NCBI GenBank assembly: GCA_041651115.1
Contig: JBAZJY010000001.1
Coordinates: 581,165 to 645,164, forward strand
Length of the DNA: 64,000 nt
Reading direction: 5' to 3'
Source: Candidatus Omnitrophota bacterium
GTDB taxonomy: Bacteria; Omnitrophota; Gorgyraeia; Gygaellales; Profunditerraquicolaceae
How positions within the stretch are numbered: position 1 is the stretch's first letter; each line of letters begins with the position of its first letter. The notes under the pieces are model-generated. The model did no database searches and was not told where the DNA came from. It saw only the letters and a program-made list of their open reading frames with translations. Of the stretch, positions 42,820-62,295 are shown one piece after another. The translations under genes were made by a program, and so were the position numbers.

Positions 42820-42835
42820 CTTGCTCCTCTCTGAT

Positions 42836-44839: not shown

Positions 44840-46062
44840 TGAAACCTCGCTTTCACCGATTCAAGGTGTTTACTTAAGCCCTCTATGCCGGCTATCTTTT
44901 CTAATGGCTCGCGTACCTTTTCCAGCGCCTTCTTGGAATAACTGATAATGTGGTTAGACTTGATGAAATCAAGCGCGGAAAGCCCGGAGAAAAACCTTGC
45001 CGTGCCGCCGGTAGGAAGCACGTGGCTCGGGCCTGCCACATAATCACCAACCGCAGCCGGGCTGTATGGCCCTAAAAATATTGCCCCGGCATTGCGGATG
45101 CTCCTTAAAAGCTTCTGCGGGTTATTTACGAGTATCTCCAAATGTTCAGGCGCGATCTTATTGGCAACCTCTGCTGCCTGCTCAAGGTTCTTAGTTAAAA
45201 TAATAAATCCGTTTATGCCTGCGGTTTGCTGCTCCACTTCTTTAGCCAGGCTTTTAGAATTCGTGATCAATATCGCCAGTCCGCCGGCATGCTCCTCCTG
45301 CGCTTTTAAGTCGGCAACGATAAATTTAGGATCGCTGTGGCGGTTGGCAATAATTACCAGCTCTGTAGGGCCGGCAATCATGTCAATATCCACAATCCCG
45401 AAAACCTGGCGCTTTGCTTCACTGACGTAAATATTACCCGGGCCAACAATCTTATCAACTTTAGGGATGGTCTTTGTGCCGTAAGCAAGCGCGGCAATAC
45501 CTTGCGCACCGCCAACGCGGTAGATCTCATCCACCTTCAGAAGATTAGCCACCACCAGGATATGCGGATTGATGTGCCCGGATTTATCCGGCGGGCTGAT
45601 CAGGACGATCTTCTTTACTCCGGCGATCTTTGCCGGCAGCACGGTCATATAGACCGTTGAAGCAAGAGGCGCGGTCCCTGCCGGGATATAAACACCCACT
45701 CTTTCAAGCGCTGTATAATTCTCACCCAGCACAAGGCCGTCTCCGCCTTTGATCCTCCAGGACTTCCTGATCGTTTTACCGTAAAAGCGGTTTATATTTT
45801 CAATGATCACTTTTAAGCTGGAAACAAAATCCGGGCTGATACTTTGATAAGCGCCGCTGATCTCAATTGCCGCGACTTTAAGCTGCCGGGGCGTCATCTT
45901 GACCTTATCAAATTTTTTCGTGTATTTTAACAGCGCCTCATCACCCAAAAGCCTGACGTCTTCAATAATATGCCTTACTTTTTCACTGACCCGCTTGGAA
46001 TGATTAATACGGCAGTTATAGATCTTTTCCAGCTTCTTGGAATTAAAACGGATTATTTTCAT
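44836..46062 (-). CDS. hisD: histidinol dehydrogenase
   Basis: 408 aa HisD family; 4-nt overlaps on both sides. Confidence 0.93.
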   Translation of the reverse strand: MKIIRFNSKKLEKIYNCRINHSKRVSEKVRHIIEDVRLLGDEALLKYTKKFDKVKMTPRQLKVAAIEISGAYQSISPDFVSSLKVIIENINRFYGKTIRKSWRIKGGDGLVLGENYTALERVGVYIPAGTAPLASTVYMTVLPAKIAGVKKIVLISPPDKSGHINPHILVVANLLKVDEIYRVGGAQGIAALAYGTKTIPKVDKIVGPGNIYVSEAKRQVFGIVDIDMIAGPTELVIIANRHSDPKFIVADLKAQEEHAGGLAILITNSKSLAKEVEQQTAGINGFIILTKNLEQAAEVANKIAPEHLEILVNNPQKLLRSIRNAGAIFLGPYSPAAVGDYVAGPSHVLPTGGTARFFSGLSALDFIKSNHIISYSKKALEKVREPLEKIAGIEGLSKHLESVKARFQ

Positions 46063-48665
46063 AGTTTGATTTGGCTGATGATGTTTTTCAATTCTGCCAG
46101 CGCTGCGTCAATGCCTGCCGGGTTATTGCCGCCTGCCTGCGCAAAATCCTTTCTTCCGCCGCCTGATCCTCCGATAAAACCTGCGGCTTTATTTACCAAT
46201 GCCGCAGCATCTATGCCCTTTTGCGTCAGATCGGCAGTAACGCCGATCACCAACAGGGCTTTATCGGAAGCCGTGGATGCCAAGGCAATGACTGCTCCCG
46301 CGGTTTTTTGCTTGATCAAATCTACTGCGCTGCGCAAAGCAGCCATATCTGCTCCGGGAATATTTTTTGCGATAAGCTTTAAGCTGCCGATCTTTTCTGC
46401 TGATTGAGCCAACTCATCTACCGAAGATTTTACCGTATTTATTTTTTGAGAATTAAGCTGTTTTTCCAGCTCTTTTATCCGGCTAAGCCGTTTCTCTAAT
46501 TCAACTGCCATTTCTTCTTTTTCCTGCTTCACTGCCTGCAAGGCCGCAAACCCGGTTACCGCCTCTATCCTCCTTATACCGCTGGCTACCGAGCCTTCGC
46601 TGGCAATCCTAAATAATCCGATCTGGCCGGTTGAATCAAGATGCGTGCCGCCGCAGAATTCGCGGGAAAACCCGCCGATAGAAACTACGCGCACTTTGCC
46701 TTCGTATTTTTCCGCAAAGAATGCCAATGCCCCGGTCTTTTTCGCGCTTGCCAAAGGCATTTCTTTTACCGAGAGGCCGTGGCTGCCGAGAATATAGCTA
46801 TTAACTGTTTCTTCAATCCGGCTAAGCTCGCTGTCGCTGACAGCCTTAAAATGGCTGAAATCAAAACGCAAGCGGCCTGCCTCAACTAATGAACCTTGCT
46901 GCTGCACGTGCGGGCCAAGGACCTGCCTTAAGGCTGCCTGTAAAAGATGCGTGGCAGTATGGTTTCTGGCAATGGAAAGCCTGCGCTCTATATCAACTTT
47001 TGCCAAAACCTGGTCTGCTTTCTTAAAAGCGCCTGCCTTGACCTTGCCGCTATGAAATATTATCTTACCTGATTTTTGCGTATCTGTAACTTCAAAGATA
47101 TTCTTTCCCTTAACCAGCACGCCGGTATCGCTAACCTGGCCGCCGGACTCGGCATAGAACGCGGTTTTATCAAGGGCGATCTGCACCTGCTCATCCTTGC
47201 CGGCTTTTTTCACCTGCTTGCCGTCTTTAATGATCGCCAGGACCTTGGCAGAAACTTCATAATTCTTATATCCGGAAAACTTTGTCGCGGCAATATCCAA
47301 TTTTAATCCTCCGGAAGCAAACACGTCACCTTTCATATTGCTCTGGGATTTTGAACGCTGCCTTTGCTGCTGAAGGTTCTCATCGTACAGCTTCATCGCT
47401 GTCAACGGCACGCTGCCAAATTTTTTTTCCAGCCAGCTGATGATCAACTCCAGCGGCAAGCCGTAGGTATCGGTAAGCTTAAAAATGGAATCAGCGGTTT
47501 TTCGGCTATTGCTTAAGCCTTTTTCTCCTTCAAAAGCCTCTTTTAAATACCTATCGCTGGAATCCAGAATGGCGATAAAATTCTTTTCTTCCGCCTGGAT
47601 TACTTGCGCAATATCCTCCCGGCGAACGGATAGTTCAGGATACGGGCCTTTCATGATCTCCGCTAATACCGGCACAAGTTTATGCAAAAACGGCTTTTCT
47701 ATGCCCATCTGGCGCAGCGCAAGCACGGATTTACGGATTATTTTTCTCACCACGTAACCGCGGCCCTCATTGGAAGGCAAGATACCGTCGTAAATGGAAA
47801 AAACTACGGCGCGGAGATGATCGGCTACGGCATAAATAAGTTCGTTAGAAGGGGTTGTCCCCAAAGAGGACTGTCCCTTAACTTGTCCTTGCCGTATTTC
47901 CTTTATTATCGGTTGAAAAATGTCCGTCTCAAAATTATTCGGCGCGCCCTGCATTACTGCTGCCAGGCGCTCAAGGCCCATACCGGTATCAATGTTTTTC
48001 TGCGGCAAAGGCTCAAGTACGCCCCCATCCTTACGGTTAAACTGCGTGAACACAAGGTTCCAGATCTCCACAAACCTGCCGCAGGGGCAAGACGGATCAC
48101 AAACCGGTTCTCCGCAGCCCTTGTCTTTTCCGAAATCATAGAATATTTCCGAACACGGCCCGCACGGCCCATTCGGGCCTTTTTCTTTTGCTTCTGCCGG
48201 CCAAAAATTATCTTTATCTCCCAGCTTGACGATCTTATTTACCGGGACGCCGATCGCATCCTTCCAAATTTTATATGCCTCATCGTCATCTTTATAAACC
48301 GAAACCCAGAGTTTTTCCGGGCTGATCTTCAGTTCCTGGATCAGGAATTCCCATGCCCACCTGATCGCATCCTTTTTGAAATAATCCCCAAAAGAAAAAT
48401 TCCCCAGCATTTCAAAGAACGTGTGGTGGCCGGCAGTCTTGCCCACTTTGTCCAGGTCGTCGGTGCGCAGGCAGCGCTGGGAAGTTGCTGCCCTGCGAAA
48501 ATCGCCTACCTCCCCGAGGAATTGTTTTTTAAACTGGTTCATCCCCGCAGGCGTAAAAAGCACGGTAGGGTCTTCTTTAGGCACCAGCGAGTCGCTTTCA
48601 ACGACCCGATGTTTCTTCGCTTTAAAAAAATCCAGGAATTTTTTTCTCAAGATATCTGCTGTCAT
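46059..48665 (-). CDS. alaS: alanine--tRNA ligase
   Basis: 868 aa class II aaRS with editing domain and C-Ala domain. Confidence 0.95.
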   Translation of the reverse strand: MTADILRKKFLDFFKAKKHRVVESDSLVPKEDPTVLFTPAGMNQFKKQFLGEVGDFRRAATSQRCLRTDDLDKVGKTAGHHTFFEMLGNFSFGDYFKKDAIRWAWEFLIQELKISPEKLWVSVYKDDDEAYKIWKDAIGVPVNKIVKLGDKDNFWPAEAKEKGPNGPCGPCSEIFYDFGKDKGCGEPVCDPSCPCGRFVEIWNLVFTQFNRKDGGVLEPLPQKNIDTGMGLERLAAVMQGAPNNFETDIFQPIIKEIRQGQVKGQSSLGTTPSNELIYAVADHLRAVVFSIYDGILPSNEGRGYVVRKIIRKSVLALRQMGIEKPFLHKLVPVLAEIMKGPYPELSVRREDIAQVIQAEEKNFIAILDSSDRYLKEAFEGEKGLSNSRKTADSIFKLTDTYGLPLELIISWLEKKFGSVPLTAMKLYDENLQQQRQRSKSQSNMKGDVFASGGLKLDIAATKFSGYKNYEVSAKVLAIIKDGKQVKKAGKDEQVQIALDKTAFYAESGGQVSDTGVLVKGKNIFEVTDTQKSGKIIFHSGKVKAGAFKKADQVLAKVDIERRLSIARNHTATHLLQAALRQVLGPHVQQQGSLVEAGRLRFDFSHFKAVSDSELSRIEETVNSYILGSHGLSVKEMPLASAKKTGALAFFAEKYEGKVRVVSIGGFSREFCGGTHLDSTGQIGLFRIASEGSVASGIRRIEAVTGFAALQAVKQEKEEMAVELEKRLSRIKELEKQLNSQKINTVKSSVDELAQSAEKIGSLKLIAKNIPGADMAALRSAVDLIKQKTAGAVIALASTASDKALLVIGVTADLTQKGIDAAALVNKAAGFIGGSGGGRKDFAQAGGNNPAGIDAALAELKNIISQIKL

Positions 48666-49123
48666 AGCTCATTCACCACGTCAATGACCACGTCCGGAGA
48701 AAAACCGCGGCGGATAAGGTAACCGTAAATGCGCTGCCTTATCTTTTGCGGGTCAACGTCCTTCATTTTTTCTTTTCTCCTGCGGGCAATCTCTAACGCT
48801 GTTTCTGTTTCCGGATAATCTTCTTTTATCCGCGCGACCTCGCCTTCAATCAAACGCTTATCAATGCCTTTAAGCGCCAGCTCCTGCGCGATCCGCCTTG
48901 CCCCCATGCCTTTTTTTAAACGGGAATCGGCCCATCCCCTGGCAAAGGCTGCATCATCAATAAATTTTTTTTCTTTTAAGAAATCTATTGCCTTGCGGAT
49001 TACCGGCTCATCAAATTTCTTTTTCTTAAGGCGGCTGCGCAGCTCGTTTTCGCTGCGCAATCGGAATTTTAAAAGCAGAAAACAATAGTTCTTTGCTTTT
49101 TCAAACGGCGTTAAACCTAGCAC
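48662..49123 (-). CDS. recX: recombination regulator RecX
   Basis: 153 aa helical-repeat RecX family immediately after recA. Confidence 0.8.
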
Positions 49124-50135
49124 GGATTTCCTTTTCCAGGTCCTGCTGCAGCTTCGGCCTTTCTTTCATCAGCTTGATCACCGAATCCCTGCCCTGGCCG
49201 ATCTTTTCATTCTGGTAGGAGAACCACGCCCCGGACTTCTCCACGATATTCAGGTTGACTGCGGCATCAAACGTGCTGATCGTCTTGGATATACCTTCGT
49301 TATGCAGTATCTCGAACTCTGCCTCTCTAAACGGCGGAGCCACTTTATTTTTTACTACCTTTACGCGCACGCGGTTGCCGATCACCATTTCATTGGCTTT
49401 AAGCGTGGCGATCTTCCTTATGTCCAGCCTGACGGAACAGTAGAATTTCAGCGCCCTGCCGCCGGGAGTAGTTTCCGGAGAACCGAACATCACGCCGATC
49501 TTTTCCCTGATCTGGTTGATAAAGATCACGCAGGTGCGTGATTTACTGATCGCCGCGGTAAGCTTACGCAGCGCTTGCGACATCAGCCGCGCCTGCAGGC
49601 CCATATGCGAATCGCCCATGTCCCCTTCGATCTCCGCGCGGGGAGTAAGCGCAGCAACCGAATCAACGACAATAAGATCAACGGCATTGGAACGCACTAA
49701 GGTTTCTGCGATCTCCAGTGCCTGCTCGCCGGTATCCGGCTGGGAGATCAAAAGGTCATCCAGATTCACGCCGATGATCTTGGCATAGGTGGGGTCAAAA
49801 GCATGCTCTGCGTCAATAAAAGCGGCAACGCCGCCTTTTTTCTGGATCTCTTTTATCGCGCTTAAAGTAAGCGTGGTCTTGCCGGATGCTTCCGGCCCGA
49901 ATATTTCAATGATCCTGCCGCGCGGAAGGCCGCCTACACCTAAAGCAATATCCAGGGTAATCGCGCCCGTAGGGATTACCTCTACGTCTGCCTTTACTTC
50001 CTGGCCAAGCTTCATGATCGAACCTTTGCCAAACTGTTTCTCTATCTGGGTAAGCGCCAATTCCAGCGCCTTTTGCCGGTCTGAACTTACCTTTATTTCT
50101 TCTTTCTTTTTTTCTACAACCATATCCGCCTCCAA
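49101..50135 (-). CDS. recA: recombinase RecA (ORF as called starts at TTG; likelier start is the ATG at 50121-50123 preceded by GGAGG)
   Basis: Walker [11 protein letters not shown], conserved RecA core. Confidence 0.97.
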
Positions 50136-51087: not shown

Positions 51088-51163
51088 TAGGGACGGTTCT
51101 CAACTCAAAGCTAAAGTGTCCCCTTGGAGGGGACACTTTACGATTGGCTTGAGAACCGTCCCT
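51088..51163. repeat. family-1 palindromic repeat element, copy B
   Basis: TAGGGACGGTTCTCAACTCAAAGCTAAAGTGTCCCCTTGGAGGGGACACTTTACGATTGGCTTGAGAACCGTCCCTG between btuB stop and tonB-like start. Confidence 0.85.
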
Positions 51164-51167
51164 GAAT

Positions 51168-53024
51168 TTAAAACTCAAGTTTTAGCCCACCGGTGGCGGA
51201 AAATCCGGGCATTGGATAATCGCGGATAACTTGATATCTCCTCGCGGAAAGATTATCCACCGAGCCAAAACAGGTTACTCCCTTAGAAAATTTCTTTGAC
51301 AAACCGAGCCCAAAAACAAAAAATCTTTTTACGGAAATAGAATTGGCGGCATTATGGAACCTTTTATCCGTAAACTGGCCCTTGAATTCAAAGACAACCC
51401 CCTTAAAACCCTTATACCTCAACAAAAGGTCCGCTTTATTCTTAGGCTGATATATCAGGTATTTTCTGGTTTTATCATCTATCGCCCGCATATAAGTATA
51501 GTTAAGTCCTAACTCCAGATTATCAAGGAGATAAAAGGTATTGCTGAATTCTACGCCGTCAATCAATGCCGACCCGATATTTGTAGGGCTCCATACGCCG
51601 TTGTCATCGGCAGCCCAATTGATCAACTGCTTGTAAACGCTTCGATAGTACGTTACGCCCGAAGAGAAATATTCGCAGGGTTTAACATCAATGCCAACCT
51701 CCCCGGTCGTCCCCTTTTCGGGCCTAAGGTTTGGGTTGCCCTTTGACCAGCCTTCATCCGGCCAATACAAGTCGTTAAAGGTAGGCGCGCGGAAAGAACG
51801 CGCAACCAGGCCGTGTAATTTAATATTTTCTGATATTTTATAAACCGCGCTCAGGCTGGGGCTGAATTGCGCACCGAAATTTGAATAGTCATCTACCCTT
51901 GCGCTGAAGTTCAGCTTAAATTTAGAAGTTACATCCCACTGGTTTTCCATGTAAGCTGCCTTGACATTATATTTATGTTTTGCCGAAGACGTACTATCGT
52001 TATAGTTACCTACATAATTCAAACCGCCGATCAACTGATAAAAATCAAAGAGCTTACGGTTAAATTGCAGCTCAAGCCCCCTGGCTACCGTTGAATGGAT
52101 GTTTTTAGCATTAGCTGAATCAAAGATTGAACCGGCGCTGTTCTCAATGAATTCCAGGCGGTCATAATTACGGTAGATCCTGGCAGAAAAGCCCGTAAGA
52201 TTATCCGGCTTAAAATTCCAGGCCAAATCAAGGTAATTCGTAAGAGCCAGCTGCTTATCATCCGTATCGGGAGAACTGACAGCTCCGGGCAGGCCTGACT
52301 TATTCCTGTAAAATCCGGATCCCAGCCTAAGTGTACTGCTATCGTTAAGGCGGTATTCAAATTTAGCGTTTGCATCTTTGGAGTTGACCTTGGAATTATC
52401 ACGGAAACCTTGCGAGCTCAAGTAGCCTCCGCTAAAAAGGTAACCAAAACCCCCCACCCTGCCGCCGTGAAGCAACCGGTCGGTATAAGTCCTGAAAGTG
52501 CCAAAGCTGGAGCTGACCGACGTCTCAAATCCTTTTATGGGAGGCTGCTTAGTGATAATATTGACGGTGCCGCCCATTGCCTGTGAGCCGTATAAACTGG
52601 AAGCCGGACCATGGACAACTTCAATCCGTTCGATATTGTCTAAGGGAATCGTGCTGAGGTCAACTTGCCCGCTGCGCGGATTATTCACCGGCCTGCCGTC
52701 AACGGTAACTAGGACCTGTTCTGCCGTGGAACCGCGCATCCTGATACTCTTTAATTCGCCTACTCCGCCATAATCACTGATATCGACTGAAGTCAAACCC
52801 GTCAAAGCCGCGGCAACATCTTTTGCCCCGGAATATTCGATCTCTTTTGCGGTAACCACGTCCACGCTGCAGGCAGTATCACCGCAATATTCTTCTATCT
52901 TAGACGGAGTTACGACTATTTTTTCCAGGTCGATATCTCCGGCGCTTGAGCTGCCTGCCGCAACCGAAAATAATAAAACCGCCGCTAATACTATGCTAAA
53001 TAAATATTTCATATTCCTGTCCAT
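51168..53024 (-). CDS. btuB: TonB-dependent outer-membrane receptor, BtuB-like (vitamin B12/corrinoid transporter)
   Basis: 618 aa, signal peptide, TonB box EKIVVTPSK, plug plus 22-strand barrel size, C-terminal Phe; preceded by a cobalamin riboswitch. Confidence 0.85.
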   Translation of the reverse strand: MDRNMKYLFSIVLAAVLLFSVAAGSSSAGDIDLEKIVVTPSKIEEYCGDTACSVDVVTAKEIEYSGAKDVAAALTGLTSVDISDYGGVGELKSIRMRGSTAEQVLVTVDGRPVNNPRSGQVDLSTIPLDNIERIEVVHGPASSLYGSQAMGGTVNIITKQPPIKGFETSVSSSFGTFRTYTDRLLHGGRVGGFGYLFSGGYLSSQGFRDNSKVNSKDANAKFEYRLNDSSTLRLGSGFYRNKSGLPGAVSSPDTDDKQLALTNYLDLAWNFKPDNLTGFSARIYRNYDRLEFIENSAGSIFDSANAKNIHSTVARGLELQFNRKLFDFYQLIGGLNYVGNYNDSTSSAKHKYNVKAAYMENQWDVTSKFKLNFSARVDDYSNFGAQFSPSLSAVYKISENIKLHGLVARSFRAPTFNDLYWPDEGWSKGNPNLRPEKGTTGEVGIDVKPCEYFSSGVTYYRSVYKQLINWAADDNGVWSPTNIGSALIDGVEFSNTFYLLDNLELGLNYTYMRAIDDKTRKYLIYQPKNKADLLLRYKGFKGVVFEFKGQFTDKRFHNAANSISVKRFFVFGLGLSKKFSKGVTCFGSVDNLSARRYQVIRDYPMPGFSATGGLKLEF

Positions 53025-53027
53025 CTT

Positions 53028-53150
53028 CTCCTCCCATGAGAATACTTGCCAAAACAGGCAATCGACCGGGCTTACCGCCGGAGGCGGAATTACCGTTGCA
53101 GGGCAGCACCCCGGATCTCACGGGGATTTCCTTTACCTGTCCGGAAGAAT
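53028..53150 (-). promoter_or_regulatory. cobalamin riboswitch (minimal aptamer) in btuB leader
   Basis: Minus strand: GGAAATCCCCGTGAGATCCGGGGTGCTGCCCTGCAACGGTAATTCC ... GTAAGCCCGGTCGATTGCC. It parallels the E. coli btuB element (GGGAATCCAGTGCGAATCTGGAGCTGACGCGCAGCGGTAAGG ... AAGCCCGAAGACCTGCC) as recalled from memory. It starts at the stop codon of the upstream PP-loop gene. Confidence 0.6.
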
Positions 53151-53768
53151 TACTTGTTGTAATAACCTGAACTCTACCGGCCTTTTAAAAATAGGGCCGT
53201 CATAAACAAAAGTGTGAAATTCTCCCTCCTCTCCGCATGGGTCAATCGCAGGATCGTAACGCCGCAGGTCCTCGATAAACCGCTTGTCCAACTCTCTGCC
53301 CAACCATTCCTCTCCCAACACGCCGGCCTTGACGCAGACTATCACTGCCTTGAATCCGCAATTAATAAAATCACAAAGGATATCTTTTGTATTTAAGCCC
53401 CACAAAGGAAAAACCGGTTTTATATCTGATTCTTTACAGACCCGGTCAATCCATTCTTTGTGTTCCTTTAAATAAATATCGCCGAAAATTATCGCCTCAA
53501 TGCCCTTATTTACTTTCCATTCGGCGATCAAGTTTTTAAATTCCCGCTCATATAGTTCCGGGCCGGGCATTGGTTTCTGAAATAACGGCAACCCGCAAAC
53601 CCTTGCCTGATCCGAGATCAAACGGGGATCAAGGCCGTGAGAAAGTGAAGCCGTGCCGTCAAGCTTCGTGAAATTAAAAAGTGCCGTAACCTTATAGCCG
53701 CGCGACATTGCCTTGTAACAGGCAAAACAACTGTCTTTACCGCCGCTCCAGAGGGAAACCGCCTTCAT
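53133..53768 (-). CDS. PP-loop ATP pyrophosphatase of the Dph6/MJ0570 (diphthine-ammonia ligase-like, ATP_bind_4) family, embedded in the cobalamin operon
   Basis: 211 aa; N-terminal MKAVSLWSGGKDSCFACY PP-loop (SGGxDS), family-typical EGEFHT motif near C-terminus; start overlaps cobQ stop by 4 nt. Confidence 0.75.
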   Translation of the reverse strand: MKAVSLWSGGKDSCFACYKAMSRGYKVTALFNFTKLDGTASLSHGLDPRLISDQARVCGLPLFQKPMPGPELYEREFKNLIAEWKVNKGIEAIIFGDIYLKEHKEWIDRVCKESDIKPVFPLWGLNTKDILCDFINCGFKAVIVCVKAGVLGEEWLGRELDKRFIEDLRRYDPAIDPCGEEGEFHTFVYDGPIFKRPVEFRLLQQVILPDR

Positions 53769-55342
53769 TGCGCCTTTCCTTTATTTAGTATCTTATAGAG
53801 ATAACTGATATCAATACTTTCCCGGACTAATTTTGCCAGTTTATCGATCTGGGCATCAGGATTAAAATCTGCGGCACACGATAATGCCGGCCAGCCTTTC
53901 ATGAGCCGCGCCCTGTTTAAAAATTCCCTGCGAAATCCCGGGGCATCGAATAAGCCGTGGATGTATGTGCCGAAAATACGGCCGTTATTGCTGCAGGCGC
54001 CGTCAAAATACTTTACCTTTCTGCCGCTGCGCTCAAAGACTTCAAAAAGCGGTTTGCAACTTTTGGGTACCGTAGTAACGCCATGGTGGATCTCATAACC
54101 TAACAATTCAATTCCCGAAAATAATGCCCTTGCCCTTACGCGGCTAAGCTCCTTTTTCGCCATTAAACGCGTTTGCACGGGTAAGAGTTTTAAGCCGGCT
54201 ATTTTTTTACGGCTGGATTCTATTGAATGCTTGTCGGAGATCAGCCTGCCCAGCATCTGGTAGCCGCCGCAAATCCCCAACAGCACAGGCGGAAACTTTG
54301 AGCCGACAGCCGATAAAATCTTTTTTACAAAACCCGAGGCATGCAAATGTGCCAGGTCAAAAAGGGTATTTTTTGTCCCCGGGATAACTATCATATCCGG
54401 CTTGCCTAATTCTTCCGGCCGGCTCACATAACGCAAGCTTACGTCAGTTTCGGAAGAAAGGGCGTCAAAATCGGTGAAATTGGAAATATGCGGCAGGTAT
54501 ATTACGGCGATATCCAGTTTCTGCTGTTTTTCTTCTGACGGGCCTGCCGTAAAATTATCCAAAGGCACGGCGTCTTCTTCGGGGATCACTATGTTTTTAA
54601 AATAAGGAATAACCCCCAGCACCTTGATACCGGTGCGCCTTTCAAGCCATTTGAGCCCCGGATCCAAAAGGCTCTTGTCCCCGCGGAATTTATTGATGAT
54701 AAATCCTTTGATCATCCGCCGCTCAGCTTTAGTCAAAAGCTCAAGCGTTCCTACTAACGAAGCAAAAACTCCTCCTTTGTCAATATCGCCGACCAGTATC
54801 ACCGGGGCTTTTGCGTATTGCGCCATTTTCAGATTCACGATATCATGCGACTTTAAATTGATCTCTGCCGGGCTGCCTGCCCCTTCCATAACCACGGCTT
54901 CATACTTTTTGCTTAATGTATCAAATGATTTTTTGACTACCGGAATGAGCTTAGCCTTGTAACGCGTATAATTGCGGGCATTCATATTGCCGATCGGCTT
55001 GCCGCGGACAATCACCTGCGCTCCGACATCGGTAACCGGCTTGATCAAAACCGGGTTCATATCCACGTCAGGCTCAATGCGGCATGCCAACGCCTGCACT
55101 GCCTGCGCGCGGCCAATCTCGCATTCATCTTTTGTGACAAAAGAATTCAAGGCCATATTCTGCGCCTTAAAAGGGCAAACTTTGTAGCCGTCCTGCAGGA
55201 GTATCCGGCATAGCGCCGAAACCAATACACTCTTACCTACTCCCGAACCTGTGCCGCAAATTTGTAGTGCTTTGGCTTTCATTTGATAAAGGCTTTCCCG
55301 GCAATAATAAAAAATAAAATCGTTAATTCGTTTAATTCGCAC
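53765..55342 (-). CDS. cobQ: cobyric acid synthase (CobQ/CbiP); probable true start at MKAKALQICGTG (about 55282)
   Basis: 525-aa ORF; N-terminal dethiobiotin-synthetase-like ATPase domain, C-terminal class I GATase. Confidence 0.85.
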   Translation of the reverse strand: MRIKRINDFIFYYCRESLYQMKAKALQICGTGSGVGKSVLVSALCRILLQDGYKVCPFKAQNMALNSFVTKDECEIGRAQAVQALACRIEPDVDMNPVLIKPVTDVGAQVIVRGKPIGNMNARNYTRYKAKLIPVVKKSFDTLSKKYEAVVMEGAGSPAEINLKSHDIVNLKMAQYAKAPVILVGDIDKGGVFASLVGTLELLTKAERRMIKGFIINKFRGDKSLLDPGLKWLERRTGIKVLGVIPYFKNIVIPEEDAVPLDNFTAGPSEEKQQKLDIAVIYLPHISNFTDFDALSSETDVSLRYVSRPEELGKPDMIVIPGTKNTLFDLAHLHASGFVKKILSAVGSKFPPVLLGICGGYQMLGRLISDKHSIESSRKKIAGLKLLPVQTRLMAKKELSRVRARALFSGIELLGYEIHHGVTTVPKSCKPLFEVFERSGRKVKYFDGACSNNGRIFGTYIHGLFDAPGFRREFLNRARLMKGWPALSCAADFNPDAQIDKLAKLVRESIDISYLYKILNKGKAQ

Positions 55343-56025
55343 ACTGCGCCCAAAGTATCGCCGGTTATCCCGCCGATCTTGCGGCTGATTAATTTAGAAA
55401 ATAGCCATGCGCTAAAACCCGCGAGCATGAAAAGCAATAGGCCGTTTAGCTGCCATAGCATTATCGCAATAAACAAAGTAACCCCGGTTGCCATAAAAAA
55501 TATTCTCCGGCTCATATGCGCGGTAAAAGTTTTTGCCTTGCCTTCGCTACGGGCATAGGGAAAGAAAAACATCGCTTCCACCAATGACCAGCGGCTTAAA
55601 ACGCACATAAATATTAAAGCCGCGGGTTTATCCTGCGGCGGGAGAGAAAAAACAAGCCCAGTCTTCAGCAATACCGCGCAGACAATGCTGATCACGCCCA
55701 TTGCCCCGCTGTGCGGGTCGCGCATGATCTCCAGGCATTTTTCCCTGCTTCTGCCGCTCATTAAACCGTCAAATGTATCGGATAAACCATCCAGATGCAT
55801 ACCTCCGGTAAGCGCTGCCAACGCCACAACTAAAATTATCGCGGCCGGCAGCTCATAAAAATGCAGAGCGATCAATACTGCGTTCAAACCAACCAAAGCC
55901 ATCCCGATCAGCAGCCCGGCTAAAGGAAAATAAAGCATGGACCTTGCTATCTTGCGCTCATTAACATTTTTAACGCGCAAGGGAATGACGGTCAGGAATT
56001 GTATGGCCAGTAAAAAACTTGTCAC
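55279..56025 (-). CDS. cobS: adenosylcobinamide-GDP ribazoletransferase (cobalamin synthase)
   Basis: 248 aa polytopic membrane protein of CobS family. Confidence 0.85.
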   Translation of the reverse strand: MTSFLLAIQFLTVIPLRVKNVNERKIARSMLYFPLAGLLIGMALVGLNAVLIALHFYELPAAIILVVALAALTGGMHLDGLSDTFDGLMSGRSREKCLEIMRDPHSGAMGVISIVCAVLLKTGLVFSLPPQDKPAALIFMCVLSRWSLVEAMFFFPYARSEGKAKTFTAHMSRRIFFMATGVTLFIAIMLWQLNGLLLFMLAGFSAWLFSKLISRKIGGITGDTLGAVCELNELTILFFIIAGKAFIK

Positions 56026-57080
56026 TTGCTTTTCTCCGAAACGTTTGCGCTTTGGAACGTCGCCATTTGTGTGAGGATCTTTACGGAAGCCTCTGCCAAT
56101 CCGATTGCTATGGCAGCGCCCGTGCCTTCACCCAGCCTTAAATTCAGGTCAAACAGCGGCTTTAAGCCGATATGCTCTAAAATATATTTATGCCCGCCTT
56201 CTACCGAATTATGTGCCGCGATCATATAATCTTTTACTTTCGGCTCAAGGTAATAAGCGATCAGCGCTGCCGAACCGGAAATAAATCCGTCGATCACTAC
56301 GGGAACTTTCTTACTTGCCGCTGCCAGGATTATTCCGGCAAGCCCGGCAATCTCAAAACCGCCGACCTTAGACAACACATCAAGGCTGTCTTTAGGGTCA
56401 GGTTTGTTCACTGCCAGGGCCTTTTCAATTACTGCGATCTTATGTTTTAATCCTTTGTCATCAAGACCCGCGCCGCGGCCGGTGATCTCATCTAACGGCT
56501 TTCCGGTAAAAACAGCGGTTATTGCGCTGGCAGCAGTGGTGTTACCAATGCCCATTTCACCTGTGCCGATAATATCAGCCCCGCGCCGGAATTCATTTTC
56601 AAATACCTCAAATCCGGCAACCACCGCCCTTATTGCCTCATCTCTGCTCATTGCCGGGCCTTTTGCCATATTCTTGCTGCCGTAGGCAATCTTTTTAATT
56701 ACCAGGCGCGGATCAGGACGCAGGTCTGAAGCTACTGCCATATCCACGATCACTACTCTTGCTCCGGCGTGATTTGCTAGAACATTGATCCCTGCGCCGC
56801 CGGCAAGAAAATTATAGACCATTTGCGCAGTTACTTCTTTAGGATAAGGGCTTACTCCTTCATCGGTCACACCATGATCGGCAGCAAGCGTAAAAATCAC
56901 TTTGTTACCAAGATACGGGTTATCTTTTCCAGTGATCCCGCAGACCTGTCTTGCTAATTCCTCCAACTTACCTAAACTGCCCAAAGGTTTAGTCAGATTA
57001 TTAAGCCGGCCCTGGGTCCTCTCCATAAGCTTTATGTCAAGCCCGCTGATCTGCGTAGTTATCTTTTTAACCCTTTCCAT
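56022..57080 (-). CDS. cobT: nicotinate-nucleotide--dimethylbenzimidazole phosphoribosyltransferase
   Basis: 352 aa CobT family. Confidence 0.88.
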   Translation of the reverse strand: MERVKKITTQISGLDIKLMERTQGRLNNLTKPLGSLGKLEELARQVCGITGKDNPYLGNKVIFTLAADHGVTDEGVSPYPKEVTAQMVYNFLAGGAGINVLANHAGARVVIVDMAVASDLRPDPRLVIKKIAYGSKNMAKGPAMSRDEAIRAVVAGFEVFENEFRRGADIIGTGEMGIGNTTAASAITAVFTGKPLDEITGRGAGLDDKGLKHKIAVIEKALAVNKPDPKDSLDVLSKVGGFEIAGLAGIILAAASKKVPVVIDGFISGSAALIAYYLEPKVKDYMIAAHNSVEGGHKYILEHIGLKPLFDLNLRLGEGTGAAIAIGLAEASVKILTQMATFQSANVSEKSK

Positions 57081-57081
57081 T

Positions 57082-57603
57082 TTATCCTTTCTTAATTTTC
57101 ATCGGTATGCCGGAAACCGTAAAAAATACTTCATCGGCTTCTTTGGCTACCAGTTGATTTACCCTGCCGGCAATATCGCGGAACTGCCTTGCCAGCTTAT
57201 TTGCCGGGACTATACCTAAGCCGACTTCATTAGAAACCAGAATTACTTTTGATTTCCCCTGCTTTAATGCCGTAAGCATTTTTATTACCTGCTGCGTGAT
57301 CTTTTCTTCTTTATTCCCGCCAAGCAGAAGATTAGAGACCCATAATGTCAGGCAATCTATAACAATGCAGTCAAAATTATTCTTTATTTGCCCTAATGCG
57401 ACGGTAATATCCCGGCCTTGCTCAAAGGTAGCCCAGCTTTTTGGCCGAGACTGTTGATGTTTTTTAATGCGCTGCCGCATTTCTTTATCTAAGCCCCGGC
57501 AGGTTGCCACAAAGGCCACCTTTTTATGTTTTTTTGCCAACTCCAGGGCAAAGCTGCTTTTCCCGCTGCGCGCTCCGCCTAAAATAAAAATTATTTTTCC
57601 CAT
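57082..57603 (-). CDS. cobU: bifunctional adenosylcobinamide kinase / adenosylcobinamide-phosphate guanylyltransferase
   Basis: 173 aa, P-loop GGARSGKS, CobU/CobP family. Confidence 0.88.
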   Translation of the reverse strand: MGKIIFILGGARSGKSSFALELAKKHKKVAFVATCRGLDKEMRQRIKKHQQSRPKSWATFEQGRDITVALGQIKNNFDCIVIDCLTLWVSNLLLGGNKEEKITQQVIKMLTALKQGKSKVILVSNEVGLGIVPANKLARQFRDIAGRVNQLVAKEADEVFFTVSGIPMKIKKG

Positions 57604-58235
57604 TTCTTTTTAGTAGGGACGGTTCTCAAGCCAATCTTAAAGTGTCCCTTTTTAGGGGACAGTTTAGCTTTGAGTTGAGAACCGTCCCTCTTGTATTCAA
57701 CTACTGTGACGCTTGCCGGTTTAGGGATATGCTGCCAGAATTTCCTTGACTTAAGCAGGCTGCTGACAAAAATGCCGATCACTCCGCCGTGGCAGACAAC
57801 GGCGACGGTTTTATCCGGATTGGCGCGGCAGATCTGGTTGATCTGGCCGCAGATGCGCTCCTTAAAATCGCGTAGTTTTTCGGCTTTGGGGATATGGTGC
57901 CTATGCGGATCCTTAACCCAATTCTCATAAAGCGCGCCATATTTTTTTAAGATCGCCTTATGCCGCAGGCCTTCAAGCACCCCGAAATTTATTTCACGCA
58001 AGCCCTTTACCTTGGTGAATTTACTTTTACCGAAAACAATGCGGCAAGTCTCCAGCGCCCGCTTCTTATCGCTTGAATAGATTTTATCAAAACCGATGCC
58101 TTTAAGCGCGGATGCCAGTTTCTTTGCCTGCCGTTTTCCTTCCCTGCTCAAGCCCACATCAATGCGGCCGCAATAACGTTTCTCTTTATTCCAGGCCGTG
58201 ATCCCATGGCGGATCAAGACCAATCTCGTGTTCAT
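57591..58235 (-). CDS. cobC: alpha-ribazole-5'-phosphate phosphatase (histidine phosphatase family); C-terminal ~25 aa encoded by family-1 repeat copy C
   Basis: 214 aa, RHG catalytic motif (LIRHGITAWN); reads through 57614-57689 element and stops 13 nt inside cobU. Confidence 0.8.
   Translation of the reverse strand: MNTRLVLIRHGITAWNKEKRYCGRIDVGLSREGKRQAKKLASALKGIGFDKIYSSDKKRALETCRIVFGKSKFTKVKGLREINFGVLEGLRHKAILKKYGALYENWVKDPHRHHIPKAEKLRDFKERICGQINQICRANPDKTVAVVCHGGVIGIFVSSLLKSRKFWQHIPKPASVTVVEYKRDGSQLKAKLSPKKGHFKIGLRTVPTKKKWEK
57614..57689. repeat. family-1 palindromic repeat element, copy C, in frame inside the 3' end of cobC
   Basis: TAGGGACGGTTCTCAAGCCAATCTTAAAGTGTCCCTTTTTAGGGGACAGTTTAGCTTTGAGTTGAGAACCGTCCCT. 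Confidence 0.85.
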
Positions 58236-59026
58236 GACTTTTCTCCCGGCACAAGCATAACGTTCGGCTTTCCGGTAATCCGGTTATTATTCACCAGGAC
58301 AACCGTTTTATAGACCGCCTCTATGTTCTGATAAGTCAAAACTTCTTCCGGCGTCCCCTGCTTATAAACCAGGCCGTCGTTAAGCAAGGCAATGCGATTG
58401 CAATAAGCGCTGGCTAAATTTAAATCATGCATGATCATGACGATCGTCAAGCCTTTTGCGCGATTAAGCCGTTTTAGAAGGTCTAAAACCTGTATCTGAT
58501 GGCCGATATCCAAATGGGAAGTAGGCTCGTCCAAAAGCAGCAGTTCCGGTTCTTGCGTAAGCGCGCGGGCAATGATCACCCGCTGCCGTTCTCCGGCTGA
58601 AAGCTCATCAATATATTTATCCCGGAAGCGTAAAGTATCGGTAAGCTCAAGAGCCGCTTCTGCAACGCGGATGTCGTTCTTACCTTCAAGCTGCATGCGG
58701 CCAAGATGAGGGATCCTGCCCATTAATGCGATCTCCATTACCGTAAACGAAAAATTAGTAGCAATGTCCTGCGGCACAAAAGCGGCTTTCTTACAGAATT
58801 CCTTCAGGCCCATTAAGAAAACATTTGTATTGCGGAAATAAACCGCGCCCTTAGACGGCCTCAGCACGCGCGTTACCAGCCGTAACAGCGTGGTTTTTCC
58901 GGAACCATTCGGCCCGATGATCCCCAAAAAATCACCCTGCCCTAAAGACATCGAGAGCCCCTTAATCACGTCTTTGTTATAATACCCGCCGCATAATCCG
59001 TCAATCTTAAGCAAACTGTCCGTCAT
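58232..59026 (-). CDS. btuD: ABC transporter ATP-binding protein, corrinoid/iron-siderophore type (BtuD/FepC-like)
   Basis: 264 aa, Walker A GPNGSGKTT, signature LSAGERQR. Confidence 0.85.
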   Translation of the reverse strand: MTDSLLKIDGLCGGYYNKDVIKGLSMSLGQGDFLGIIGPNGSGKTTLLRLVTRVLRPSKGAVYFRNTNVFLMGLKEFCKKAAFVPQDIATNFSFTVMEIALMGRIPHLGRMQLEGKNDIRVAEAALELTDTLRFRDKYIDELSAGERQRVIIARALTQEPELLLLDEPTSHLDIGHQIQVLDLLKRLNRAKGLTIVMIMHDLNLASAYCNRIALLNDGLVYKQGTPEEVLTYQNIEAVYKTVVLVNNNRITGKPNVMLVPGEKS

Positions 59027-59976
59027 ATCCGCTTGCCCCGTTTTAACAAAATTATAAATACCGGCGCGCCGATGATCGCGGTGATCACGCCGATAGGGAT
59101 CTCAACCGGAGAAAAAAGCGTGCGGCCTAGAGTATCGCAGGCAATCATGAATACCGAAGCAGCCAGGCAGGTTACCGGGATCAAAATCTTATGGTTCGGC
59201 CCAATGACTAAGCGCATCATATGCGGCACAATAAGCCCGACAAAACCGATTATCCCGCAGATACAGATCAGGCTCGCGGTGATCAAAGCGGTTATCAGTA
59301 TCACGATCTTTCTGATATTCTGCGTATTTATCCCAAGGTGCATTGCCTCTTCTTCTCCCAGGCTGATGGCATTCAGGTCCTGCGCAAAAAGATATATCGC
59401 GCAAATGCCCAGTATTACCGGGACAGCTACCAGCATCAACAGTTTGTGGTCATAAACCTGCAGGCTGCCCCAAAGCCACCAGTTCATTTCGTGCATCGCT
59501 TCGTTGCCGAACAGGGAAACCAGGAATACGATCACCGAAGAAAACGCGACGGAAATGATCACGCCGGATAAAATCAGCGACTTATCGGAGATCCTGCCGT
59601 GCTCGCGCGCCAGGTTATAGACGATAAAGATGCTTGCTGCCGCGCCGAAAAACGCGGCAAGCGGCATATAAACGCGCGACAGCCCAAGGATAACCGCGCT
59701 GACTGCGGCAAGCCCTGCGCCGCTTGATGTGCCCAACAGATACGGCTCAGCTAATGGATTGCGCAATATTGCCTGAAGCGCAATGCCGGAAACAGCCAGG
59801 CCGCTGCCGGTTAAGATCGCAGCCACAATCCTTAGCATGCGCAGGTTAAAAATAGCCCTATTCTCCTGACGAAGAAGATCCGCAATAGGTATCTTGACCG
59901 CCCCGCTGATCAAGCCGAAAACTACAGCCCCCGCCAACAAAATAAATAATATAATTATTTTACGCCTTAGCTTCAT
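59023..59976 (-). CDS. btuC: ABC transporter permease, FecCD/BtuC family
   Basis: 317 aa, ~9-10 TM FecCD family. Confidence 0.85.
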   Translation of the reverse strand: MKLRRKIIILFILLAGAVVFGLISGAVKIPIADLLRQENRAIFNLRMLRIVAAILTGSGLAVSGIALQAILRNPLAEPYLLGTSSGAGLAAVSAVILGLSRVYMPLAAFFGAAASIFIVYNLAREHGRISDKSLILSGVIISVAFSSVIVFLVSLFGNEAMHEMNWWLWGSLQVYDHKLLMLVAVPVILGICAIYLFAQDLNAISLGEEEAMHLGINTQNIRKIVILITALITASLICICGIIGFVGLIVPHMMRLVIGPNHKILIPVTCLAASVFMIACDTLGRTLFSPVEIPIGVITAIIGAPVFIILLKRGKRI

Positions 59977-60826
59977 ATAATTTCTTGTATAATTCTTCTA
60001 GCCCCTTGGTAATGCGCGGCCCCGGCCGCAGCAGCGTATCAGGGTCAATATCGTTAAATACCCGCCTATTCTTCACCGCATCTATATCTTTCCAGCCAAA
60101 ACGGCCCTCAACCAGTTTTAACGGCGGCTCTTTATCCATATAAGCCAGGATGATTACCTGCGGGTTAAGATCAATTACTTTTTCCGCGCTGTAATTGCAA
60201 TACGGCCTGATTACTTCATGGGCTACGTTTATGCCGCCTGCCAGAGAAACTAATTCGTCTACAAAAGAGCCTTTTCCCGCGGTCATCAGCGGCTCGTGCC
60301 AGATCTCGATAAAAACCCTTACGCGGTCAGCCGGCAAGACAAGCTTTACTTTCTCGTTTATTGCCGATATATCTTCACGCATCCTGTTTATAAGCCGGCC
60401 TGCTTCTTCGGCCTTTGCAGTGATCTTAGCTATTTCATTTATCGACGCGAATAGTTCTTCTGCGCTTGAAGGATCTGAAACATAAACATTGAACCCCAGC
60501 CTGCGCAGCTCCTGCACTGCCTGCGCCTGCTCTAGACCTGTGCAAAAAATGTAATCCGGCTTCAAGGAAATTATTTTTTCTATATTAGGGCTGCTAAAAC
60601 TCCCTACCGCAGGCTTATCTCCTGCCGCTTCCGGGTAATTACAGAACGTGCTCACGCCTACAATGCTGTCAGCCAGGCCTAAGGCGAAAAGGATCTCGGT
60701 GGTAGAAGGGGCAAGAGAAATATAACGCGGCTTATCTGCGGCAAAACAGCCGCTTAAATTCCAAGTACCAAGCACCAAATAACAAATAATAACCAATAAC
60801 CAAGAATTCAATGACCGGAATTTCAT
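59960..60826 (-). CDS. btuF: periplasmic corrinoid-binding protein (BtuF-like, class III SBP); ORF-track N-terminus trimmed to MKFRS Met
   Basis: Signal peptide MKFRSLNSWLLVIICYLVLGTWNLSGC; upstream 39 codons of the track ORF lie in the riboswitch; RBS AAGGGG 5 nt before ATG. Confidence 0.8.
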   Translation of the reverse strand: MKFRSLNSWLLVIICYLVLGTWNLSGCFAADKPRYISLAPSTTEILFALGLADSIVGVSTFCNYPEAAGDKPAVGSFSSPNIEKIISLKPDYIFCTGLEQAQAVQELRRLGFNVYVSDPSSAEELFASINEIAKITAKAEEAGRLINRMREDISAINEKVKLVLPADRVRVFIEIWHEPLMTAGKGSFVDELVSLAGGINVAHEVIRPYCNYSAEKVIDLNPQVIILAYMDKEPPLKLVEGRFGWKDIDAVKNRRVFNDIDPDTLLRPGPRITKGLEELYKKLYEAKA

Positions 60827-60832
60827 ATTCCC

Positions 60833-61063
60833 CTTATAAAAAAAATTCCCGATCCGGTATCTTCTACCATGATCGGGTCGCACCCAGCTTGCTATGGCCC
60901 TATCCACGAGGCTGCACATGCACAGGCAGGTCTTCTGACTCAAGGATCATCCTACTCGCTGCGCCTTCCCGGCCGGCTTAACGCGGCAGTGGCTTTTGCA
61001 GCTTTCGTCCCCTCTTACAGCAGCGGGACTGTGGCCGGTTTAAACGGCCTTCCCTAACCCATG
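60833..61063 (-). promoter_or_regulatory. cobalamin (AdoCbl-type) riboswitch with intrinsic terminator expression platform, leader of btuFCD-cobCUTSQ operon
   Basis: Minus strand: GGTTAGGGAAGGCCG ... GGCCACAGTCCCGCTGCTGTAAGAGGGGACGAAAGC ... AAAGCCACTGCCGCG ... B12 box GAGTCAGAAGACCTGCC (60925-60941); terminator hairpin CCCGATCATGGTAGAAGATACCGGATCGGG then AATTTTTTTTAT (60833-60877). Confidence 0.9.
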
Positions 61064-61120
61064 CATTGATTTATATGTTTTAGGTTACACCGCTAAAGAA
61101 ATATTGTCAAGCAATTATTA

Positions 61121-61791: not shown

Positions 61792-62295
61792 TTATAATTC
61801 AATCCCCTTCCTCGCCTTAAGGCCTTTCGCATAATAATGCTTTTTATCTTTTATTTCACTTACCAGGTCTGCTAATTTTATAACCTGCGGATGGGCATTG
61901 CGGCCGGTAAGCACAAGCTCTATTCCGCGGGGGGTTTTTTTGATCAAACTGATCACGCTGCTCAATTCTATTAATTTCAACTTTAGGGCGACATTGATCT
62001 CATCCAGTATCACCACATCATAAGCTTTCCGGCTGATCACCGCTTCAGCTTTTTTTAGACCTTTTTTTGCCATTGCCAGGTCTTTTCTTTCCGGGATACG
62101 GCGGATAAAACAACCTGCGCCGAACTGCTCAACTTTGACGTGAGTTAATTTTTTTAGCGCCTTGATCTCACTATAGCAGCCGCTTTTAACGAATTGGCCG
62201 ATATACACCTTAAGCCCCGCGCCTTGAGCCCTAAGCGCCAAGCCTAATGCCGCAGTAGTCTTACCTTTACCATTTCCAGTGTAAACCTGTATCAA
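61792..62295 (-). CDS. cobO: cob(I)yrinic acid a,c-diamide / corrinoid adenosyltransferase (CobO/BtuR type)
   Basis: 167 aa, MIQVYTGNGKGKTTAALGLALRA P-loop typical of CobA/BtuR. Confidence 0.85.
   Translation of the reverse strand: MIQVYTGNGKGKTTAALGLALRAQGAGLKVYIGQFVKSGCYSEIKALKKLTHVKVEQFGAGCFIRRIPERKDLAMAKKGLKKAEAVISRKAYDVVILDEINVALKLKLIELSSVISLIKKTPRGIELVLTGRNAHPQVIKLADLVSEIKDKKHYYAKGLKARKGIEL

Follow-up and report, generated by a model that had tools for sequence, protein, structure and literature searches.

A DUF71-B12-type PP-loop protein in a riboswitch-headed B12 salvage operon of Candidatus Omnitrophota, and its possible role in corrinoid side-chain amidation

What does a relative of the diphthine-ammonia ligase Dph6 do in a bacterial vitamin B12 salvage operon? 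This question is raised by a 64,000-nucleotide stretch of a Candidatus Omnitrophota genome (assembly GCA_041651115.1, contig JBAZJY010000001.1, positions 581,165 to 645,164), which we refer to as the window. At 53133-53768 an open reading frame (ORF) encodes a 211-amino-acid PP-loop ATP pyrophosphatase whose N terminus is MKAVSLWSGGKDSCFACY. These coordinates agree with those of the original prediction, with the qualification that the gene is on the minus strand. We found that the ORF is very probably a member of the DUF71-B12 subgroup, judged by domain, motif, and context, and that it very probably acts in corrinoid salvage. For its reaction we tentatively favor an AMP-forming, ammonia-dependent ligation at a free corrinoid side-chain carboxylate. 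The sequence itself establishes three things, and what goes beyond them is inference: the adenylating site of the PP-loop is intact, the catalytic residue is altered, and the gene shares a riboswitch-headed operon with corrinoid import and nucleotide-loop assembly.

The family assignment is clear. PF01902 (Diphthami_syn_2, formerly DUF71/ATP_bind_4) covers residues 1 to 204 of the ORF with an E value of 1.4e-52, and the only other Pfam match was a marginal one to the ThiI PP-loop. The PP-loop S8-G-G-K-D-S13 and the conserved H44 are intact, and the C-terminal motif reads G179-E-E-G-E-F-H185-T. When we searched the PDB, we recovered two Dph6-type archaeal proteins, PH1257 (2D13; E, 1.7e-27) and PF0828 (3RJZ/3RK0/3RK1; E, 3.6e-27), and found no nearer relative. 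The PP-loop, the histidine, and the C-terminal motif all align with both. We built an AlphaFold2 (AF2) model from 30 homologues, with a mean predicted local distance difference test score (pLDDT) of 91.2 and a predicted template modeling score (pTM) of 0.87. The model matches both archaeal structures with template modeling (TM) scores of 0.77 to 0.79 (0.79 for PH1257) and a root mean square deviation of about 2 Å. A strand at residues 2 to 6 is followed by a helix at residues 11 to 22, with pLDDT values of 96 to 98 there, which is the HUP fold with the PP-loop at the N terminus of helix 1. The top Foldseek matches were again PH1257 and PF0828, followed by 3k32, MnmA, argininosuccinate synthase, and TilS, all of them PP-loop enzymes, with unrelated Rossmann-like folds (for example, ArnA formyltransferase domains) mixed into the same list. 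The MJ0570/Dph6-type family proposed by the original prediction was thus confirmed, as was the PP-loop fold, which had been named beforehand as a test.

The family has been divided before. De Crecy-Lagard, Forouhar, Brochier-Armanet, Tong, and Hunt (Biol Direct 2012;7:32; PMC3541065) separated DUF71/COG2102 into bona fide Dph6 and "DUF71-B12," the latter comprising all bacterial members and the second copies of some archaea. They found DUF71-B12 genes adjoining B12 transporter genes such as btuCDF in 75 of 102 cases and adjoining cbiB in 18 of 102. They also reported that the strictly conserved Dph6 motif EGG[E/D]xE188 becomes ENGE[F/Y]H188 in DUF71-B12 and that the Dph6 residues contacting elongation factor 2 (EF-2) are not conserved there (PMC3541065). 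Diphthamide modifies EF-2 in archaea and eukaryotes, and its pathway is missing from bacteria (PMC3541065). That paper was the sole match in the full-text literature for PF01902 together with cobalamin, and we found no solved structure for the subgroup. The original prediction had called the activity previously undescribed. This did not hold, as the subgroup and its link to B12 salvage were published in 2012, and the ORF is an additional member of a known, still orphan family.

In our alignments the ORF is of the DUF71-B12 type. H185 sits opposite E188 in pairwise alignments to PF0828 and PH1257, and histidine occupies this column in all 83 clade proteins from the loci described below. We also aligned 133 full-length representatives, chosen at 50% identity, with the query and both Dph6 references (n = 136); the column holds His in 132 sequences and Glu in 3, with Glu in both references. 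The nearest relatives are all His-type and are bacterial or secondary archaeal copies. The ATP-site residues named in the 2012 paper (PMC3541065) are all present in the ORF: the PP-loop S, G, G, K, and D, together with H48, T189, and the stretch G-x-G-G-E-F. The ORF resembles DUF71-B12 (PMC3541065) in its domain, in the replacement of Glu188 by His in E-x-G-E-[F/Y]-H, in its kind of operon (btuFCD with nucleotide-loop genes or cbiB), and apparently in the distribution of its relatives over bacteria and second archaeal copies. It differs in four respects. The second motif position is Glu, a minority residue (7/133), instead of the usual Asn (70/133); a C-terminal strand is missing; the gene is coupled to an orphan cobQ; and its host belongs to the Omnitrophota, which had no genomes in the 2012 survey. 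We rejected one further candidate feature, a metal or Fe-S site of the TtuA/NcsA kind formed by C14, C17, C111, and C178. Within the close clade these cysteines show little or no variation; across the family they are not general (present in 56, 22, 80, and 99 of 133 representatives, respectively).

The comparison with Dph6 itself (PF0828, PH1257, and yeast YLR143W) shows what is retained and what is changed. The two-domain PP-loop fold is shared at 30 to 32% identity. The residues that Dph6 uses around ATP and pyrophosphate (PPi) are intact in the ORF, namely SGGKDS, H44 (Dph6 H48), G-E-x-G-E-F, and T186 (Dph6 T189), and the adenylation chemistry is probably common to both. In contrast, His replaces the Dph6 catalytic Glu, the protein comes from a bacterium, its gene stands in a B12 operon, and the score with TIGR03679, the NCBIfam equivalog for Dph6_archaeal, is 138.2 bits, below the cutoff of 197.3. 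An identical protein from a Candidatus Omnitrophota metagenome-assembled genome carries the NCBI name "diphthine--ammonia ligase," as do public homologues (P0001, P0006, P0018, and others). Because the TIGR03679 cutoff is missed and the catalytic Glu is His, this name is a propagated over-annotation. The original prediction's view of a bacterial member that is not a diphthamide enzyme and probably works in corrinoid salvage is consistent with these results.

The ORF is part of an operon that reads, on the minus strand, cobalamin riboswitch-btuF-btuC-btuD-cobC-cobU-cobT-cobS-cobQ-ORF-second riboswitch-btuB. From btuF to the ORF all genes run in one direction, and neighbors overlap by 4 to 17 nucleotides (nt) or lie 1 nt apart. 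The ORF is the last enzyme gene ahead of btuB. Its ATG and the TGA of cobQ share the sequence ATGA, a 4-nt overlap that bears out the predicted translational coupling to cobQ. The predicted riboswitch control of the operon is likewise supported by a strong RF00174 match at its head, and a cobalamin riboswitch heads the operon in all seven related loci that we scanned with Rfam. CobQ is present, as had been claimed, and full scoring. CbiA, CbiB, and CobD had been called absent from the window, and we agree: phmmer with Omnitrophota seeds found no CbiB or CobD in the 64 kb, and phmmer with CobQ as the probe found no second CobQ/CbiA-like protein there.

A second riboswitch, of the adenosylcobalamin (AdoCbl) type, spans the junction of the ORF and btuB. 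The original prediction had placed a btuB riboswitch directly after the ORF. An element is present, but it is subthreshold, scoring just under the RF01482 gathering score of 50, and it overlaps the end of the gene, covering the last 26 nt of the ORF (53133-53158). Because its score is below the gathering score, a default Rfam scan misses it; its counterpart in a related locus (L044) reaches the gathering score with 50.3 bits. The 3' end of the element holds the btuB Shine-Dalgarno sequence (GGAGG) and AUG, with the btuB start codon at 53024, and because of this arrangement the riboswitch suggests translational control of btuB.

We then compared the neighborhood across relatives. Scanning a single genome for each GTDB species gave 543 confirmed relatives, the best 80 of which were taken with 10-kb flanks; 82 loci (numbered with the prefix L) stood after removal of redundancy, and genes were counted within 10 kb. 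We searched the ORFs of these loci by phmmer, using as seeds the window proteins together with CbiB, CobD, a radical SAM protein, and DUF4430 from L001. At least one specific, co-directional B12 salvage gene was found in 61 of the 82 loci and at least two families in 57. The commonest were cobS (46 loci), cobT (45), btuF (44), cobU (42), btuC (40), and btuB (33), followed by cobC (30), cobA (21), cobQ (14), cobD (14), and cbiB (12). Directly upstream of the DUF71 gene we found cobS in 20 loci, cbiB in 7, btuD in 6, and cobQ in 5; directly downstream, btuB in 21, cobU in 8, and btuF in 6. The hosts include Omnitrophota, Dehalococcoidia/Chloroflexota, Planctomycetota/Brocadiia, Elusimicrobia, Nitrospirota, and Desulfobacterales, as well as Syntrophorhabdales, Dependentiae, Patescibacteria, Poribacteria, Aquificota, and Bathyarchaeia. 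An exact-sequence look-up placed close homologues in the same slot, in strings of cobS-cobQ-X-btuB or cobD-cobQ-cbiB-X-DUF4430-btuB (X being the DUF71 gene), and the Bathyarchaeia string is btuFCD-X-cobT(archaeal)-cobS-cobY-like. The link of homologues to cobalamin genes and riboswitches, which the original prediction had named as a check, is thus conserved (61/82 loci and 7/7 riboswitches).

A special partnership with CobQ did not generalize. As cobQ lies near the DUF71 gene in only 14 of the 82 loci, the coupling seen in the window is lineage specific, and it is the transporter and the enzymes of nucleotide-loop assembly that recur as partners. An orphan cobQ, with no cbiB, cobD, or cbiA nearby, was observed in the window as well as in L004, L009, L011, L012, and L015, whereas sister Omnitrophota operons carry cobD-cobQ-cbiB. 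Such cobD-cobQ-cbiB-DUF71 strings occur in L001, L008, L010, L013, L014, and L021.

What reaction would fit this protein and this setting? If the chemistry of the family is retained, ATP would adenylate a carboxyl group with release of PPi, and a nitrogen nucleophile would then displace AMP. The substrate would be a salvaged corrinoid, and a free side-chain carboxylate would be amidated using ammonia. Under-amidated or hydrolytically deamidated corrinoids brought in by BtuB and BtuFCD would in this way become usable by CobU, CobT, CobS, and CobC, and in the window lineage the adjacent orphan CobQ would cover the other positions. Such ammonia-dependent side-chain amidation plausibly suits the chemistry of the PP-loop fold. 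Dph6 is an ammonia- and ATP-dependent amidating enzyme (PMC3541065), and we favor amidation because this ancestral chemistry appears to be kept. The proposal would also give a purpose to a stand-alone cobQ without cbiB or cobD, as in the window and the five orphan-cobQ loci; a cobQ in such an operon makes sense only if amidating salvaged material is itself useful. A third reason comes from a second carboxylate-adenylating gene, which lies upstream in three unrelated lineages. This Asn-synthetase-like gene encodes the synthetase (PP-loop) domain only, with no glutaminase, and is the immediate upstream neighbor of the DUF71 gene, running in the same direction, in L019, L034, and L069, from Methanobacteriota, Dependentiae, and Bathyarchaeota hosts; two of the three loci are B12 operons.

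Known enzymes offer partial parallels. If the ligase reading is right, the ORF product would resemble CbiA/CobB and CbiP/CobQ in converting corrinoid carboxylates to amides. Those enzymes are P-loop proteins (MinD/BioD-like) with a fused glutamine amidotransferase, whereas the ORF encodes a PP-loop protein with no glutaminase domain and therefore would use free ammonia or another amine, via an acyl-adenylate. NadE and QueC, which combine a PP-loop and a HUP fold with acyl-adenylate formation and then ammonia attack, provide a mechanistic template; the kinship is limited to the nucleotide-binding core, and their substrates and C-terminal domains are different.

Several points weigh against corrinoid amidation. 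The Glu-to-His change lies at the catalytic position, and the reaction may differ from that of Dph6. Bacterial genomes with CbiB carry either CbiZ or DUF71-B12 and never both, which points to a CbiZ-like role (PMC3541065). Because 33 loci hold no other amidation or aminopropanol-arm gene (they have cobS, cobT, or cobU and no cobQ, cbiB, or cobD), the operon context does not single out side-chain amidation. We found no conserved ammonia-supplying partner among the related loci. Our literature search, whose coverage did not extend to subscription-only papers, found no biochemical or genetic characterization of any DUF71-B12 protein, and a 2016 review gives the function as unknown. Finally, the window copy lacks the terminal strand of its clade and may be impaired.

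A narrower form of the amidation proposal, which we consider conceivable though doubtful, is that DUF71-B12 is a corrinoid "repair" amidoligase, working with a stand-alone CobQ in lineages such as that of the window, that re-amidates environmental corrinoid carboxylic acids. Such acids would arise by slow hydrolysis in sediments and groundwater. If this is true, obligate salvagers could use B12 analogues that are otherwise inactive or inhibitory, and the reaction would be an undescribed step in cobamide salvage and the first demonstrated action of a PP-loop enzyme on a tetrapyrrole.

The strongest rival, unlikely in our estimate, is that DUF71-B12 substitutes functionally for bacterial CbiZ and removes the aminopropanol/nucleotide-loop arm of cobinamide or pseudo-cobamides to give cobyric acid. 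The f-side-chain amide might be activated with ATP, and CbiB and CobD would rebuild the arm with the preferred lower ligand (remodeling). PP-loop enzymes can adenylate amide or lactam oxygens, as do GMP synthetase and QueC in its second step, which counts for this rival. In bacteria, DUF71-B12 is strictly anticorrelated with CbiZ, nearly all genomes that have CbiB carry one of the two, and a CbiZ-like role in pseudo-B12 salvage was "cautiously" put forward (PMC3541065). Among our loci, the DUF71 gene directly follows cbiB in 7 of 82 and occurs in cobD-cobQ-cbiB-DUF71 strings in six, and there is no CbiZ among the neighbor families common to at least two loci. The two proteins occupy comparable slots beside btuFCD and nucleotide-loop genes, and this, with their reported complementary phyletic distribution, makes DUF71-B12 a candidate for the same pathway role. 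They share no kinship of sequence or fold (the ORF has no PF01955 match in Pfam), and CbiZ, which acts on adenosylcobinamide and pseudo-B12, is an ATP-independent amidohydrolase. Hydrolysis would reverse the usual direction of a PP-loop amidoligase. In the open review of the 2012 paper, L. Aravind doubted that the amidoligase PP-loop fold had been reused as a hydrolase, and the authors conceded that DUF71-B12 shows no hydrolase-specific sequence change (PMC3541065). In addition, the window and 33 of the 82 operons have no nearby cbiB or cobD to use the cobyric acid, though these genes could be elsewhere in the genome.

Two further rivals seem to us less probable still, and about equally so. 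According to the first, the protein activates the f-propionate of cobyric acid and couples it to aminopropanol (phosphate), as a soluble alternative to CbiB or an ATP-using partner of it. The DUF71 gene adjoins cbiB in 7 loci, and in the window lineage it comes straight after the gene of the cobyric acid-forming enzyme, cobQ, with no cbiB. A genuine CobD (TIGR01140) without cbiB is found in the complete-looking operons L034 and L061 and in L026 and L042, where the contig ends. Against this, 12 operons hold both cbiB and the DUF71 gene, which excludes a simple replacement of CbiB, and cobD, as the source of the amine, is missing from the window and from 33 further loci. The informative operons are two only (L034 and L061), and cbiB is possibly elsewhere in those genomes.

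The second gives the enzyme a noncorrinoid substrate, one that nucleotide-loop assembly requires or that the same operons encode. Precursors of the lower ligand or of ribazole are candidates, as are carboxylates of a peptide or protein, the ancestral Dph6 having a protein as its substrate. The top neighbors of the DUF71 gene are cobS, cobT, and cobU, not genes for corrin amidation; Dehalococcoidia and Elusimicrobia have it placed between cobU on one side and cobS or cobT on the other. The known nucleotide-loop pathway, on the other hand, needs no carboxylate adenylation. A peptide substrate is brought to mind by CbpB, a peptide-modifying radical SAM/SPASM protein (TIGR04163, "rSAM_cobopep CbpB"; 496 bits, passing the equivalog cutoff) that we observed in nine related B12 operons. 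It is preceded in L001 by a 53-amino-acid ORF, but it is found in just 9 of the 82 loci and not in the window. Domain fusions among the representatives point both ways. GNAT fusions in both domain orders (P0242 and P0253) would agree with a noncorrinoid substrate, while a fusion to a BtuF-like Peripla_BP_2 domain (P0205), together with the adjacency to corrinoid transporters, favors a corrinoid. With the fusion to DUF6580 (P0194) and the tandem DUF71 protein (P0122), they are consistent with the corrinoid context and do not separate the mechanisms.

The short C terminus of the window copy raises a different alternative, which is compatible with the others and which we judge very unlikely: that this gene is decaying or impaired and that the internal btuB riboswitch has displaced its C-terminal strand. 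Every homologue in the 30-sequence alignment ends with a [HY]WFL[ED] strand, whereas the window protein ends FRLLQQVILPDR. It has 25 residues after T186, compared with a clade median of 38, the shortest tail of the 83 clade members, and we found no remnant of the strand in the other reading frames of the window copy. The AF2 model is disordered from residue 206, with pLDDT values below 50 for residues 206 to 211. The strand is lacking because the 3' end of the gene runs into the btuB riboswitch, which now begins where the strand-coding sequence is missing. Nevertheless, all clade-invariant residues are kept, with no internal stop or frameshift; the same 211-amino-acid product is called in three independent assemblies; and the coupling to cobQ is retained.

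A genuine diphthine-ammonia ligase, the function implied by the NCBI name and by TIGR03679 as the best NCBIfam match, is effectively refuted by the missed cutoff (138 versus 197 bits), the His in place of Glu188, the location in a B12 operon, and a host, Candidatus Omnitrophota, among the bacteria, which have no diphthamide pathway (PMC3541065).

The features of the operon and its surroundings are collected in Table 1.

Table 1. Features of the B12 locus (window coordinates) and of two gene types observed in related loci (coordinates of the respective locus)
Feature	Position	Strand	Evidence or remark
TonB C-terminal-domain-like protein, 238 aa	50335..51051	-	Resembles neighbor cluster 0
Terminator-like hairpin 3' of btuB	51112..51140	-	13-bp stem, T-rich tail; consensus match only
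btuB-like TonB-dependent outer-membrane receptor	51168..53024	-	PF07715 + PF00593
Second riboswitch, AdoCbl-type, at ORF/btuB junction	53022..53158	-	RF01482, 46.5 bits, E 2.5e-7
DUF71-B12-type PP-loop ATP pyrophosphatase (the ORF)	53133..53768	-	211 aa; PF01902
cobQ/cbiP, cobyric acid synthase	53765..55282	-	NF001989, 629 bits vs cutoff 273; PF07685 + PF01656
cobS, cobalamin-5'-phosphate synthase	55279..56025	-	PF02654, E 2.3e-58
cobT, lower-ligand phosphoribosyltransferase	56022..57080	-	PF02277, E 1.7e-136
cobU, cobinamide kinase / cobinamide-phosphate guanylyltransferase	57082..57603	-	PF02283, E 1.2e-62
cobC-like histidine phosphatase	57591..58235	-	PF00300, E 9e-52
btuD-like ABC ATPase	58232..59026	-	Best NCBIfam: corrinoid ABC transporter ATPase, 248 bits, under cutoff
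btuC-like FecCD permease	59023..59976	-	NCBIfam BtuC models, 222-234 bits, under cutoffs
btuF-like periplasmic binding protein	59960..60943 (longest ORF)	-	BtuF model, E 2e-34
Cobalamin riboswitch, operon head	60908..61077	-	RF00174, 95.1 bits vs gathering score 31.5
cobA/btuR, corrinoid adenosyltransferase	61792..62295	-	NF004637, 186 bits vs cutoff 185
Asn-synthetase-like gene	L019 8996-9991; L034 9094-9996; L069 9013-9978		
CbpB	L001 947-2538; also L003, L010, L011, L013, L014, L021, L051, L067		9/82 loci

Some boundaries and names need comment. Gene callers place the cobQ start at 55282 (505 amino acids), while the longest ORF reaches 55342. Homologue lengths of about 288 amino acids (288 in L004) indicate that the true btuF start is probably 3' of the riboswitch. 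From its operon context, we inferred that the cobC-like protein is an alpha-ribazole phosphatase. We found no convincing promoter-like or terminator-like site in the interval between the ORF and btuB, and the hairpin 3' of btuB is likely, on its sequence, to mark the end of the transcription unit. The TonB-like gene beyond it is kept 3' of btuB in 11 related loci. We assigned the window protein to neighbor cluster 0 by eye from the sequences, and the cluster representative matches PF13103 (E, 1.6e-4). This TonB-like protein may serve the btuB receptor as its own energy transducer. The cobA gene lies upstream of the riboswitch at the operon head. Further 3' of the B12 locus, on the same strand as the operon, 41612-50135 holds ordinary housekeeping genes, which we named by eye from translations, without hidden Markov models: hisF, a gene for a peptidoglycan-binding-domain protein, hisA, hisH, hisB, hisD, alaS, recX, and recA. 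The Rfam scan also gave two tRNA genes on the minus strand (30199-30271 and 30508-30580).

The related loci yielded other observations. In a Dehalococcoidia subclade (L032, L038, L048, L071, and L078) the DUF71 gene is outside B12 operons and overlaps a PRK07682-type aminotransferase gene, followed by an alpha/beta hydrolase; the His-type DUF71 protein of this subclade may have a different role. An apparent CobD-DUF71 overlap in Dehalococcoidia was set aside as support for an aminopropanol-phosphate ligase, as the supposed CobD proteins of L032, L038, L071, and L078 are generic PRK07682 aminotransferases. Removal of these four false CobD loci lowered the B12-linked count from 65 to the 61 of 82 given above. 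We also set aside two neighbors as partners. An amidase (PF01425) in five Dehalococcoidia loci, considered as an ammonia donor, is 2 to 3 kb upstream with genes between, and on the opposite strand in one. An AP_endonuc_2 protein encoded downstream in five Omnitrophota loci, considered as a CbiR-like remodeler, is on the far side of rpsU and has no counterpart in the window. Another His-type DUF71 paralogue, a divergent one that we call type B, follows btuB in L051 (10251-10943) and L067 (12549-13220). In P0122 a type-B domain is fused in tandem with a type-A domain. These arrangements might mark a two-subunit enzyme; however, all four stand-alone type-B genes that we examined are outside B12 operons. 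Type B is highly conserved across phyla, at 62 to 79% identity.

DUF71-B12 appears to be among the most consistently B12-linked genes without a reported reaction, being found in salvage operons in 61 of the 82 loci and across more than 10 phyla. The window contributes a case from the Omnitrophota, an operon variant whose orphan cobQ gives the amidation hypothesis a sharper form, and a copy with a naturally shortened C terminus; there is little in it that is new in kind. The question of the reaction is experimentally tractable, though the window does not make it newly testable. Many of the hosts are uncultivated anaerobes living on scavenged corrinoids. Knowing the DUF71-B12 reaction would correct the widespread bacterial "diphthine--ammonia ligase" misannotation, and it would fill a gap in the models of cobamide salvage and remodeling that predict B12 cross-feeding in communities.

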